From a virus (lineage: Duplodnaviria > Heunggongvirae > Uroviricota > Caudoviricetes), in the IMG/VR virus record IMGVR_UViG_2695420808_000003: 6,553 nt of DNA; one strand, written 5' to 3'. The notes beneath the pieces are model-generated. The model worked only from the letters and a program-made list of their open reading frames with translations, did no database searches and was not told the DNA's origin. Both the position numbers and the translations under genes were made by a program. Of the stretch, positions 4,149 through 6,553 are shown one piece after another (position 1 is the stretch's first letter; each line of letters opens with the position of its first letter).

Positions 4149-4613
4149 CTACTTAATGCACTGAGTGCGGATATACTCCTGTGCCCCTTCCAGTTGCATC
4201 TGCATCGTCATCAGCCGCTCTCTGAGGGTGAAATAATCCCGTTCAGCGGTGTCTGCCAGTCGGGGGCTGGTTGCATTATCCACGCCGGAGGCGGTGGTGG
4301 CTTCACGCACTGACTGACAGACTGCTTTGATGTGCAACCGACGACGACCAGCGGCAACATCAGCGCGCAGAGTTTCATTTTCAGCTTTCGCATCAGCTAA
4401 CTCCTTCGTGTATTTAGCATCGAGTGCATTAACATCACGCTGTCTCTGCTGCATGTCAGTAATGGTTGCGTTCGCCAGCTTCAGTTCTCTTGCGTTTTTG
4501 TCGCGCTGCTCTTTGTAGGTAATGGCGTTATCACGGTAATGATTAACAGCCCATGACAGGCAGACGATGATGCAGATAACCAGAGCGGAGATAATCGCGG
4601 TGACTCTGCTCAT
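4149..4613 (-). CDS. Rz: Rz-like i-spanin
   Basis: Product has an N-terminal transmembrane segment ([23 protein letters not shown]) followed by a long charged, coiled-coil-like periplasmic domain. The ATG at 4613 overlaps the endolysin stop as ATGA; the track's GTG at 4625 would add only four residues. Rz1 is nested in the +1 frame. Closely resembles the Rz proteins of lambdoid/DLP12-type prophages as I recall them. Confidence 0.9.
4211..4393 (-). CDS. Rz1: Rz1-like o-spanin (outer-membrane lipoprotein), fully embedded in Rz
   Basis: 60-aa ORF entirely inside Rz in another frame. Signal peptide with lipobox LVVVGC, then a proline-rich stretch (…[21 protein letters not shown]…). This is the classic embedded Rz/Rz1 architecture. 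Confidence 0.85.
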
Positions 4614-5107
4614 TGCTGCCCCCACAAACAGACTTCACGCTCAATCTCACGACGGGTCATCAGCCCTTTCCATTGCTTACCGCCAGCATATGTCCAGCGA
4701 CGTAGCTGGTCACATGCGCCTTTGATATCGCCCTGGTTTATTTTGCGAAGAAGCGTCGATGTTCTGAAATTGCCAGCGCCCACGTTGTAAACGAACGAGT
4801 AAAGAGCGCCGCGCGTTGTTTCCGGTATATCGACTTTGATGTACGGGTTAATTTGTCTGGCGACAGTGGCAAGGTCTTTATTCAGGAGGGCTTTGCATTC
4901 TGCTTCGGTATACGTTTTACCGAGCATGATGTCTTTTCCGGTGTGTCCGTGACATACAGTCCATACACCAATGATATCTTTGTATAGTATGTAGCTGACA
5001 CCTTCCAGACCATCGTTACCACCTGGGCCAGTGATTAACACAGATGCTATAGCAACAGCCCCACCACCAATAGCAGCTGCAACAGCCTTGCGTAATGATG
5101 GCGACAT
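4610..5107 (-). CDS. R: SAR endolysin (T4-lysozyme-like muramidase, phage 21 R-type)
   Basis: 165 aa. N-terminal weakly hydrophobic Gly/Ala-rich SAR domain ([24 protein letters not shown]) followed by the lysozyme catalytic region (…[27 protein letters not shown]…, Glu-Asp-Thr triad pattern). Start ATG overlaps the holin stop (TAATG). Near-identical to phage 21 R as I recall it. Confidence 0.93.
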
Positions 5108-5322
5108 TATTCACCTCTCGCAGCCTTACGCTTGTCTTCTCTTATTTTGAAATACAGATTTGTCAGATAAGTCAGAAGCCCCAGAAGCAGACTTCCCAGC
5201 ACACCAATCGCAGCCCACTGTGATGGACTGACCTGATCCAACCACTGCAAAAACCAGTAGCCGGCACTGCCGGCGGAGGTGCCGTAGGCAATGCCTGTTG
5301 ATATTTTTTCCATCTGATACAT
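5107..5322 (-). CDS. S: Pinholin (phage 21 S-type class II holin) with dual-start motif
   Basis: 71 aa, [71 protein letters not shown]. Two transmembrane segments and a charged C-terminus. Met1 and Met4 could give the antiholin/holin pair. Sits immediately upstream of the SAR endolysin, as in phage 21 (S21-R21-Rz/Rz1). Confidence 0.92.
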
Positions 5323-5351
5323 ATCCCGCCCCCCGACAGACCTGTGCTATC

Positions 5352-5388
5352 GGAAAGAAAAAAGGCCATCAGCAAAACTCTGATGGCC
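5352..5388 (-). terminator. Rho-independent terminator (minus strand) about 30 nt upstream of the holin gene
   Basis: Perfect 9-bp stem GGCCATCAG / CTGATGGCC (5364-5372 and 5380-5388) with a 7-nt loop. On the minus strand it is followed by TTTTTTCTTTCC (5363-5352). Confidence 0.6.
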
Positions 5389-5498
5389 TGAATCACCTTT
5401 ACCAATATTGTATGAAAAAACACGCACGACTAATTGACAATAATTTTCATTTCCATTAAAAAAGATCGCGTAGCATTCTTAATTCATGAGGAACTTTA

Positions 5499-5566
5499 CC
5501 CGCCAGCAATCTGAGTAGCGAAAGCTGTTCATCCCCAATGTTTTTGCTGGCGGGTCCTTTTTTCTA
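5499..5566 (+). terminator. Hairpin plus T-tract on the plus strand (terminator-like, long loop)
   Basis: 11-bp stem CCCGCCAGCAA (5499-5509) / TTGCTGGCGGG (5544-5554) enclosing a 34-nt loop that itself contains a small AGC-GAAA-GCT hairpin. Followed on the plus strand by TCCTTTTTTCT. Confidence 0.35.
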
Positions 5567-5570
5567 CGGT

Positions 5571-5606
5571 CCTCCTCCCCGGAGGGGGGCATTTCATTAT
5601 TTTTCT
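5571..5606 (+). terminator. Second GC-rich hairpin plus T-rich tail on the plus strand (tandem with the previous element)
   Basis: CCTCC…GGAGG / C4-G6 stem within CCTCCTCCCCGGAGGGGGGC (5571-5590), followed by ATTTCATTATTTTTCT. Confidence 0.35.
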
Positions 5607-6001
5607 AATCGTTACTGGTGAGAAGGCGGAAGAAAAAGCCAGTTCTTCGCCCCTAAATAACAGCATGATTCCAGTCCATGCAAAATCTGATTTCCAGCTC
5701 ACACATACCGAGCGCTGTACAAAAACCGCCAGCCAAGGCAGTTAAGAGTGTGTTCCCGGGGTTTGCTTAGAATATTTTGTAAGTTGTCCGAAGAGATATT
5801 TACAACACCAGAATGATGAATCATCAGTCCCCTGCCAGAGGTTCACTACGTAACCTGACCGACAATGCACCATTCTGGTGCTGAAAAAAGAGCACTGGAA
5901 CTGCAACAAAACAACATCACAGAACAGGAGATGGTAAGGAGTCAGACATTCCCACACAATATTGTGTCAGTGCAAATAACAACCTTCGTCTCAAATCTCG
6001 C

Positions 6002-6076
<75 letters not shown>

Positions 6077-6079
6077 ATA

Positions 6080-6155
<76 letters not shown>

Positions 6156-6157
6156 GC

Positions 6158-6234
6158 TGGCCCACCACCGAGGACTCGAACCTCGCACCGTCAACTTAGA
6201 AGGTTGATGCTCTATCCGGATGAGCTAGTGGTGG
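6158..6234 (-). tRNA. tRNA-Arg (anticodon UCU)
   Basis: Reverse complement is 77 nt, CCACCACTAGCTCATCCGGATAGAGCATCAACCTTCTAAGTTGACGGTGCGAGGTTCGAGTCCTCGGTGGTGGGCCA. Perfect 7-bp acceptor stem, D-stem GCTC/GAGC, anticodon stem TCAAC/GTTGA with loop CTTCTAA, T-stem CGAGG/CCTCG, CCA end. Confidence 0.85.
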
Positions 6235-6235
6235 T

Positions 6236-6312
6236 TGGTGGCCCTTGCTGGACTTGAACCAGCGACCTGGCGATTATGAGTCGCTCGCTCTGACCAACTG
6301 AGCTAAAGGGCC
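6236..6312 (-). tRNA. tRNA with anticodon CAU, most likely tRNA-Ile2 (lysidine type; elongator Met not excluded)
   Basis: Reverse complement is 77 nt, GGCCCTTTAGCTCAGTTGGTCAGAGCGAGCGACTCATAATCGCCAGGTCGCTGGTTCAAGTCCAGCAAGGGCCACCA. Anticodon loop CTCATAA, T-loop TTCAAGT, discriminator A, CCA. Backbone resembles ileX/ileZ-type tRNAs as I recall them. Confidence 0.85.
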
Positions 6313-6321
6313 GGAGGCAGA

Positions 6322-6350
6322 ATAATAACCATATGTCATCACATCTGCAA
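6322..6350 (-). promoter_or_regulatory. Candidate sigma70 promoter for the tRNA array
   Basis: On the minus strand: TTGCAG (-35, 6350-6345), a 17-nt spacer, then TATTAT (-10, 6327-6322). This places the transcription start a few nt upstream of the first tRNA 5' end (6312). Confidence 0.35.
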
Positions 6351-6395
6351 ACTCATCTGACCACCAGCACGTTTAACGTCCTGTGCCGTTTTTCA

Positions 6396-6412: not shown

Positions 6413-6483
6413 NNNNNNNNNNNNNNNNNNNNNNNNNNNNNNNNNNNNNNNNNNNNNNNNNNNNNNNNNNNNNNNNNNNNNNN
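6413..6483. other. Assembly gap (71 N)
   Basis: Uninterrupted run of n characters in the sequence. Confidence 0.99.
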
Positions 6484-6553
6484 TGGCCACCTGAACAGAG
6501 GTGATATGCTCACCTCAGAACAACACAGGTGCTCCAATGAAAAAAAGAAATTT

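Follow-up and report, generated by a model that had tools for sequence, protein, structure and literature searches.

The gap between the transfer RNA (tRNA) array and the holin gene of a Caudoviricetes prophage (IMG/VR record IMGVR_UViG_2695420808_000003) is probably functional non-coding DNA, composed of two independently recombining modules that contain RNA structures, terminators and a candidate small RNA (sRNA). The window referred to below is the whole stretch of DNA that was analyzed, 6,553 nt in length. The evidence consists of the structures themselves, the strand on which they form, their conservation, their linkage to neighboring genes, and the lack of coding potential. An earlier note on this DNA had pointed to positions 5390-6001 as an open reading frame (ORF)-free, structured interval, and had offered three possibilities: a decayed or empty cargo site, a regulatory region for lysis timing, or the locus of an unannotated small RNA. 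The last of these is the best supported.

All late genes of the window lie on the minus strand, with the tRNA array (6312-6002) followed by the gap and then by a 71-aa class II holin (5322-5107), lysozyme, Rz/Rz1, HNH, terminase and portal genes. The true tRNA-to-holin gap is 5323-6001, or 679 bp, and the interval of the earlier note falls inside it. The gap has a GC content of 0.38-0.48, the flanking genes have 0.47-0.60 and the tRNAs 0.56, which bears out the lower GC reported earlier. The description as ORF-free is also upheld. Among ORFs of at least 30 aa, all are just 30-83 aa long, none has a Pfam match, and neither frame nor position is kept among relatives; in the distal block, strand, frame and position all differ among 21 variants and no ORF is conserved. 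The approximately 1,500 BLAST matches to the gap are annotated as nothing or as "hypothetical protein". Thus, neither Pfam nor the BLAST annotations reveal the remnant of a coding gene along the gap, which the earlier note had named as an outcome that would speak against its proposal.

A search of the whole window against Rfam 15 at E≤1, which the earlier note had also proposed, gave no family besides the four tRNAs, and at E≤10 over 5700-6001 the only matches were weak generic long-hairpin (microRNA-precursor) ones of 10-20 bits. Rfam families including STnc100, IsrK and IpeX-type RNAs were rejected on these grounds. The nmpC/ipeX arrangement of DLP12 was considered as a source of the plus-strand terminators and was likewise rejected, as DLP12 of K-12 has no similarity to the gap. 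A scan for terminator-like sites found six between 5050 and 6553, compared with 1.4 ± 1.0 in shuffled sequences.

The division into two modules emerges from the distribution of the gap among relatives. In a megablast search of 5,426 complete E. coli genomes, the whole gap was found at 99% identity or more in only nine, and was unannotated in all of them. The segment from 5323/5356 to 5703 occurs at 85-87% identity in 1,428 of the 5,426, including 639 plasmid places, while another 209 genomes have the segment 5720-5985 at ~70% identity. Annotation was read for three relatives, and in these the ~70% block stands directly after tRNA-Gly, whatever is located downstream of it: holins in a fragment of an LT-IIb phage, TerB/DUF3927 cargo in a Shiga toxin-producing E. 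coli from pig, or other genes. The module junction is accordingly placed at 5703-5720, where the 85-87% similarity stops (5703) and the ~70% trailer-class similarity begins (near 5720). The distal module (~6001-5716, minus strand, hereafter late-sense) is a 3′ trailer that stays constant behind varying tRNA arrays, and the proximal module (5703-5323) is linked to the holin and consists of a plus-strand unit and a late-sense terminator, T3. Relatives have cargo at or near the junction, which is stx1d in one phage and TerB/DUF3927 genes in others; in relatives L004 and L005, the cargo comes after the last terminator-like hairpin of the distal module (T2). In the Stx1d prophage, stxAB is separated by ~355 bp from the class II holin downstream, which is the same as that of the window, and the terminator block next to the holin is common to both. 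The identification of the gap as a moron or cargo slot therefore stands, since stxAB, TerB/DUF3927 and other genes occupy it in relatives.

On a finer scale, the 99% identity between the window and relative L001 is limited to 5106-6313, that is, from the holin stop codon to the first tRNA, which implies that this stretch, comprising tRNAs, gap and holin, is a single mosaic unit that moves between different prophages. The phage GenBank collection has no full-length match to the gap. Partial matches there are short (~50 nt) and holin-proximal in three phages, and two phages, SerU-LTIIb and vB_EcoS-683R6, match the distal block at ~71-74%. SerU-LTIIb, an LT-IIb enterotoxin phage fragment, has two copies of the tRNA-Gly trailer (L003; 5001-5183 and 6903-6998), each followed by a holin1 gene, such that the tRNA-trailer-holin unit is duplicated upstream of the toxin genes. 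The comparison with related prophages that the earlier note recommended yields conserved blocks, and in the distal module it also yields covarying stems.

The distal module was examined in 64 distinct copies drawn from IMG/VR and E. coli. In 95 of 99 loci it is preceded by tRNA-Gly(UCC), always equally far away, even though the arrays ahead of it vary (Thr-Gly, Met-Arg-Thr-Gly, Met-Lys-Thr-Gly and others). After the tRNA comes a four-way junction, or "cloverleaf" (T1, 5884-5973, minus strand), which is terminator-like. Its closing helix, P1, is formed by GCACUG (5973-5968) and CAGUGC (5897-5892), and within it are three arms, A (5967-5954), B (5953-5927) and C (5922-5901); six U residues follow at 5889-5884. 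The P1-closed, three-branch junction is present in minimum free energy folds of 19 of 21 variants, as opposed to 13% of sequences with shuffled interiors, and the mean z is -2.43. It is the consensus fold in each of two sequence types; within types, arms B and C show compensatory changes, and between types arm A covaries (ACACA/UGUGU versus GCGUA/UACGU). The palindrome at 5954-5967 in the earlier note is located where it was said to be, but it is not free-standing and is instead arm A of this junction. The loop of arm B (~20 nt) contains at 5945-5933 (minus strand) the sequence CUGACUCCUUACC, which resembles the 3′ end of 16S ribosomal RNA (anti-Shine-Dalgarno) and is kept in most type I trailers and absent in type II; judging by this resemblance, it could be a seed for ribosome-binding sites.

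Downstream of T1 is hairpin C, a 33-bp imperfect hairpin (5799-5888, minus strand) identified with RNAalifold and pair counts. Its arms are 5882-5857 and 5829-5804, its base is extended by UUUUAC/GUAAA, and it ends in the invariant sequence GUGUUGUAAA. For hairpin C together with seven P1 pairs, 98.1% of the alignment cells are paired, compared with 32-54% when the partners are slid, and five pairs have changed on both sides; none of 500 shuffles attains the observed values. Canonical pairs in hairpin C amount to 98.3% on the minus strand versus 78.2% on the plus strand, the lower value being due to 140 G.U cells. These strand-specific G.U pairs indicate an RNA structure of the late-sense transcript. 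The other palindrome of the earlier note (5814-5826) is correct in position, but is a part of the 3′ arm of hairpin C rather than an independent element.

The module ends with a linker (5798-5742) and T2, which together span 5721-5798 on the minus strand and were compared in an alignment of 14 variants. The linker has a conserved 3′ part, CAAACCCCGGGAACACACUCUUAAC (5765-5741), and its indels are not multiples of three. T2 is a late-sense terminator-like element with a hairpin at 5741-5726 and U5 at 5725-5721; all 14 variants keep the stem C(C/U)GCC/GGCGG and have a tail of U5-U8, and their loops vary freely. If an intrinsic terminator is taken to be a GC-rich hairpin with a U-tract directly after it on the transcribed strand, then T3 and the plus-strand hairpin t2 described below qualify as predicted terminators by scan, and T2 and the plus-strand hairpin t1 by sequence; T1 has this form solely through the closing helix of a multibranch structure. 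Two of these late-sense elements had gone unmentioned in the earlier note, namely P1 with its U-run (5897-5884) and the T2 hairpin with its U5.

The proximal module was compared in four divergence classes, represented by the window, relative L002, plasmid pAPEC-O1-ColBM (L186) and sequence type 131 (ST131; L187). All four have a plus-strand promoter-like box, TTGACA (5434-5439), a 17-nt spacer and TAAAAA (5457-5462). Downstream of the box is a candidate sRNA of ~97 nt (5469-5565, plus strand; predicted folds, -31.6 kcal/mol), which comprises an AU-rich 5′ tail, a GC stem of 11-12 bp (5499-5509/5544-5554), an inner hairpin (5513-5530), a C-rich apical strand and U6 at 5558-5563 (the t1 terminator). 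The plus-strand fold of 5440-5612 has a z of -3.8, with none of 200 shuffles equally stable. Conservation of the proximal block peaks over the sRNA body, where 0.8-0.95 of positions are invariant, and a 34-nt apical region is nearly invariant across the four classes. The unit looks like an sRNA gene of the Hfq type that ends in a terminator. It is kept in plasmid copies next to iss and in ST131 remnants that have lost the holin.

A second plus-strand terminator-like hairpin, t2, was found by scan at 5569-5590 (GUCCUCCUCCCCGGAGGGGGGC), with a U-rich tail to 5605. It is specific to the window type and is disrupted in L002, L186 and L187. The tandem plus-strand terminators previously noted at 5499-5606 are therefore half right: both hairpins are present and the first is conserved, but the second is disrupted or variable in relatives. 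The poly-G run within t2 (5581-5589, plus strand) varies from G4 to G6 among near-identical copies, a homopolymer polymorphism that alters hairpin strength.

Other copies of the proximal block show different degrees of erosion. On ColV/ColBM plasmids the block adjoins iss. In pAPEC-O1-ColBM (L186, 3501-3844) and ST131 (L187, 3501-3848) it persists without holin or lysozyme, near iss and fragments of Rz/Rz1, and the ST131 copy is within an island beside pap genes. Among species-representative genomes, Shigella flexneri SFBU1023 and E. coli ECMA0423 (L189-L192) have two stretches with the plus-strand RNA motif per genome. A RefSeq "hypothetical protein" of 63 aa, WP_000502162.1, is annotated in L002 (4023-4214, minus strand) at the equivalent of window positions 5345-5537, where it overlaps the candidate sRNA and its promoter. 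Frameshifts and stops break its ORF in three of four other aligned sequences, namely those of the window, the plasmid and ST131, and because of this disruption it is probably a spurious gene call.

The late-sense element T3 (5352-5389, minus strand) was found by scan and consists of a 10-bp stem (5389-5363) and a U-run (5362-5352), which confirms the minus-strand terminator that the earlier note had placed at 5352-5388. It is located ~30 nt upstream of the Shine-Dalgarno sequence and ATG of the holin (5334-5320). T3 is identical in L002 and nearly so in the Stx1d phage, in the block downstream of stxB, and is decayed in the holin-less plasmid and ST131 copies. The holin (5107-5322, minus strand; S21-like, "class II holin family protein" in RefSeq) is the downstream anchor of the module. 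The N-terminus of the holin is MYQMEK, a dual-start motif, and the lysozyme (4610-5107, minus strand) has an N-terminal hydrophobic stretch. The former resembles the start of the S21 pinholin and the latter a signal-anchor-release endolysin, and so we take the pair to be a phage-21-type lysis cassette. Pairing of the plus-strand RNA to the translation start of the holin was also considered and was rejected, because 271, 397 and 145 of 500 shuffled targets had duplex energies equally good. A region for lysis timing is possible solely in the form of insulating terminators and not in the form of an sRNA that pairs with the holin start.

Other explanations of the gap need to be weighed against the reading as functional RNA modules. 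It is highly improbable that the interval is an empty or decayed cargo site, the functionless leftover of a lost moron gene for a toxin or another product. Relatives do carry stx1d and TerB/DUF3927 genes in the slot, its GC content is below that of the flanks, and t2 could be the leftover of a reverse-oriented moron; yet no protein remnant, Pfam match or informative BLAST annotation marks such a gene, and the one annotated ORF is frameshifted in other copies. Moreover, the distal half covaries at the RNA level and is strictly linked to tRNA-Gly, as a conserved structured RNA would be, and the proximal half is nearly unchanged in ~1,400 genomes, with its conservation peak at the hairpin and not at an ORF. 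A rather unlikely, though less remote, scenario applies to the plus strand, where the hairpins could be mere insulators against antisense transcription from the lysis and structural side, with no functional RNA and a fortuitous TTGACA. This would fit with the plus-strand morons of the bor/iss type downstream in relatives (iss in L002 and L186), with the position of the hairpin ~600 nt downstream of iss and on the same strand in the ColBM plasmid, and with the weak -10 box and stems without covariation. The window, however, has no plus-strand gene upstream of the hairpin, and conservation of the 34-nt apical loop and of the 5′ tail goes well past the needs of a terminator. In addition, the promoter box is kept at constant spacing in the four classes and is present in the counterpart in prophage PP4 of enteropathogenic E. 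coli (EPEC), which specifies an abundant Hfq-dependent RNA.

For the distal module, the trailer "cloverleaf" might be regarded as a degenerate fifth tRNA undergoing neutral decay, with hairpin C and T2 being just the terminator region of the array. Its closing helix of 6-7 bp, three arms and length of 82-95 nt, at the place where a further tRNA would stand, are all suggestive of a pseudo-tRNA. We nevertheless think this very unlikely. Relaxed ARAGORN searches (-ps85) find no tRNA at 5973-5892 in any of 21 variants, and the Rfam tRNA model (RF00005) gives no match at E≤10; the junction linkers are 0-1 nt, the arm lengths are un-tRNA-like, and inspection by eye reveals no motifs resembling a T-loop or D-loop. 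The 3′ strand also continues straight into the U-run. Finally, the junction shape is kept by compensatory changes in two diverged types, which points to selection rather than decay.

Several observations weigh against the reading as functional RNA modules as well. On the minus strand, single-sequence fold z values are not significant (-1.14 and -1.28), and T1 is atypical as a terminator because its closing helix spans a multibranch loop. On the plus strand, the TAAAAA box was missed by the promoter scan because it lacks the highly conserved final T of a -10 element. Covariation is uninformative for the plus-strand hairpin of the candidate sRNA, because its stems are invariant among relatives; a scan of GTDB species representatives for cross-species copies found the element confined to E. 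coli and Shigella, with identical stems. Retention on plasmids may be hitch-hiking with iss, and a literature search for expression of the iss-linked copy gave nothing relevant. The likeness of the candidate sRNA to experimentally supported RNAs, considered below, is architectural only (z 2.2-3.7, E 0.036-9).

The region upstream of the gap bears on how the modules might be transcribed. The array (6002-6312, minus strand) consists of tRNA-Met/Ile2(CAT), Arg(UCU), Thr(UGU) and Gly(UCC) by ARAGORN, with Rfam tRNA scores of 56-70 bits, and RefSeq assigns the first (CAT) as tRNA-Ile. A scan identified a promoter-like site on the minus strand at 6322-6351 (TTTGCA at 6351-6346, 18-nt spacer, TATTAT at 6327-6322; 9 of 12 matches), which ends ~10 nt ahead of the first tRNA and may serve as the promoter of the array. 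L001 has another promoter-like sequence at the equivalent place, as read by eye. Upstream of the four tRNAs there is also a remnant of a tR′-like terminator (6412-6396, minus strand). Positions 6413-6483 are masked as N, with the mask starting within this terminator, and 6484-6553 is the end of a multicopy insertion sequence of the IS3 family, in which an ORF starts on the plus strand (ATGAAAAAAAGAAATTT). In unmasked relatives, a Q-like (DUF1133) gene takes the place of this IS3-family end; in one of them (L193), this gene is followed by a tR′-like terminator and then by the tRNA array. With the IS3-family end in the place of Q, the insertion sequence probably parts the tRNA and lysis block from Q and pR′ in this prophage.

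We suggest the following scheme for the function of the gap. The tRNA array would be a self-contained constitutive moron, comprising a promoter-like site of its own, the four tRNAs and the conserved trailer, and its transcripts would stop at T1 or T2. In the lysogen, T1, T2 and T3 would halt transcription from tRNA or cargo promoters ahead of the lysis genes, T3 being the last barrier, and polymerase that starts at pR′ and is modified by Q would pass all of them. One or more RNAs derived from the trailer would form, with the plus-strand RNA, a local convergent sRNA pair that is produced constitutively. Like AgvB, AsxR and the Pas RNAs, both could target mRNAs or sRNAs of the host in trans. The plus-strand transcription, termination efficiency, Hfq binding and targets supposed in this scheme are what we infer from the sequence.

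A bolder and more doubtful possibility, which we put forward tentatively, is that the gap defines two new RNA families: (a) a trailer RNA linked to tRNA-Gly(UCC); and (b) an Hfq-type sRNA with a PasA-like GCCAGC seed. In the case of (a), the junction and the 33-bp hairpin would together form a dedicated module that serves as a decoy shaped like a tRNA, as a processing signal, or as a sponge of the 3′ external transcribed spacer (3′ETS) type freed from phage tRNA operons. In the case of (b), about one-quarter of sequenced E. coli would have an sRNA that regulates host genes independently of phage lysis, at locations that include ST131 islands and sites beside the serum-survival gene iss on ColV/ColBM virulence plasmids. 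Irrespective of this possibility, the candidate sRNA travels with iss on ColV-type plasmids and in ST131, which are clinically and veterinarily important lineages. Judged by sequence, neither the trailer of tRNA-Gly, with its junction and hairpin C, nor the plus-strand RNA linked to iss belongs to Rfam or to the Pas/Agv/Asx sets.

There are clear precedents for sRNAs in this part of a prophage. In prophages of enterohaemorrhagic E. coli (EHEC), the moron site 3′ of pR′ contains pairs of converging sRNAs, with AgvB or AsxR as the antisense member and a partner in sense (Tree et al. 2014, PMC4104026). PasA and PasC are antisense RNAs next to the holin/lysozyme operon, and PasD is a sense RNA (Pearl Mizrahi et al. 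2021, PMC8550237; Zhu, Shabalina & Storz 2026, bioRxiv 10.64898/2026.05.13.724894). The order of elements in the window is that of prophages PP2 and PP4 of EPEC strain E2348/69, which were followed all the way to the holin and have a late-sense sRNA-like unit, a convergent opposite-strand unit, and a late-sense terminator before the holin. Their opposite-strand units have a TTGACA box and a GCCAGC...GCUGGC-U-run terminator, and the hairpins preceding their holins are analogous to T3. In PP5, which insertion sequences interrupt, PasC is the opposite-strand unit and there is a hairpin resembling T3, and Sp5 of strain Sakai has a convergent pair after stx2B. The block upstream of the holin is 84% identical between PP4 and Sp5.

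The window unit (5434-5565, plus strand) is similar to PasA and PasC in being located ~110-240 nt upstream of a class II holin and opposite to the late genes, and in having a TTGACA-type box and a 3′ GC-rich stem with poly-U. In both the window RNA (CGCCAGCAAUCU) and PasA (proposed seed GCCAGCACCU), the 5′ arm of the terminator begins with GCCAGC; at the place of the PasA seed the window has GCCAGCAAUC, which is identical at 7 of 10 positions. GCCAGC is common to all six antisense-slot RNAs examined, and sharing it with the proposed PasA seed is suggestive of a possible link between the window RNA and PasA. The authors' own search for the PasA/PasC family used blastn with query coverage >75%, and the window RNA has no blastn alignment to PasA or PasC even at word size 7, which puts it outside the family by that measure. 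Global alignments compared with shuffled sequences gave z values of 2.2 for PasA, 3.1 for PasC and 3.7 for the PP4 RNA. A covariance model of the window RNA gave E values of 0.036 for the antisense unit of Sp5, 0.36 for the PP4 RNA, 1.6 for PasA and 2.8 for PasC, scores that are largely attributable to GC-rich terminators. Membership by sequence in PasA, PasC, the PP4 RNA or AsxR was rejected, given that blastn, shuffled alignments and the covariance model are at best borderline. The window RNA also differs from PasA and PasC in its length (~97 versus 79-84 nt) and its large structured apical domain, and the element is on hundreds of plasmids, compared with 12 plasmid hits reported for Pas.

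The best non-self match of the covariance model (E 0.036) is an opposite-strand unit upstream of the holin in Sp5 (L194, 7583-7656, minus strand), which ends CCGCCAGCG...CGCUGGCGG-U7. GCCAGC begins the terminator arm in this unit as it does in PasA, PasC and the PP4 RNA.

A positional counterpart with RNA-level data is annotated in PP4 as a coding sequence, E2348C_1013 (1060613-1060654, minus strand). It has a baseMean of 2064 and a log2 fold change of -2.9 (a 7.5-fold drop) in a delta-hfq strain, with an adjusted P of 1e-23, and it is always the second RNA in chimeras from RNA interaction by ligation and sequencing (RIL-seq; PMC8550237 supplements). Its RIL-seq position is exactly the predicted terminator hairpin. 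The locus (L009, 3613-3693, minus strand; NC_011601, ~1060612-1060705) thus behaves as an Hfq-dependent sRNA that is outside the named Pas set and convergent with PasD1. It shares with the window unit the slot and orientation, the holin-proximal late-sense terminator, the promoter box ATTGACAATAAT, an RNA of ~95 nt, a CGCCAGC...GCUGGC stem with U6, and convergence with a late-sense unit, here PasD1. In contrast, identity is ~47% over the compared block including flanks, and the z of 3.7 is driven largely by the promoter box. Homology of the window and PP4 RNAs is possible on these similarities.

With AgvB and AsxR, the window shares a facing pair of small-RNA units, located 3′ of pR′ and flanked by the cargo position and the phage genes downstream of it, and an antisense member that ends in an intrinsic terminator. 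With late-sense transcripts ending at T2 (5721) and the plus-strand RNA at 5563, the two would converge across ~155 nt and form a convergent pair of this kind, the Q-like gene and tR′ context being taken from L193. AgvB and AsxR are 51-60 nt long with a common 42-nt 3′ region, from which the window RNA of ~97 nt departs, and neither the gap nor the window RNA is similar to the AsxR locus of Sp5 (...GCCCGAACCCACUCGGGC-U6).

The late-sense partner has likenesses of its own. The T1-T2 segment (5889-5721, ~170 nt) is built like PasD; as in PasD1 (173 nt; PasD/EcOnc13-type), a long 5′ hairpin is followed by a weakly structured linker and a terminator with a U-run, in the same orientation and place within the convergent pair. 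Unlike PasD1, to which it has no sequence similarity, the segment is fused to the trailer of a tRNA array and does not follow a DUF3927 gene. Such a fusion is reminiscent of 3′ETS-leuZ, an sRNA sponge of ~53 nt that is cut from the trailer of the glyW-cysT-leuZ tRNA operon. The window trailer RNA is likewise situated between the last tRNA of its operon and an intrinsic terminator, and would therefore be freed by tRNA 3′ processing, with its 3′ end at the terminator or U-tail. It is longer than 3′ETS-leuZ (~118 nt) and forms a four-way junction, and we know of no sequence relation between the two.

Prophage moron slots are an entry point in E. coli for toxins and for host-rewiring sRNAs such as AgvB, AsxR and the Pas RNAs. 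Conserved RNA modules in an apparently empty slot would extend this picture to tRNA-carrying, non-Stx prophages, and coordinates are now available for two candidate sRNAs and three putative insulating terminators. For annotators, the "hypothetical protein" calls WP_000502162.1 and E2348C_1013 (EPEC) probably correspond to RNA genes. In comparison with known systems, then, the cargo slot of the window is filled by RNA modules of the type described for EHEC and EPEC prophages, with sequences that are new.

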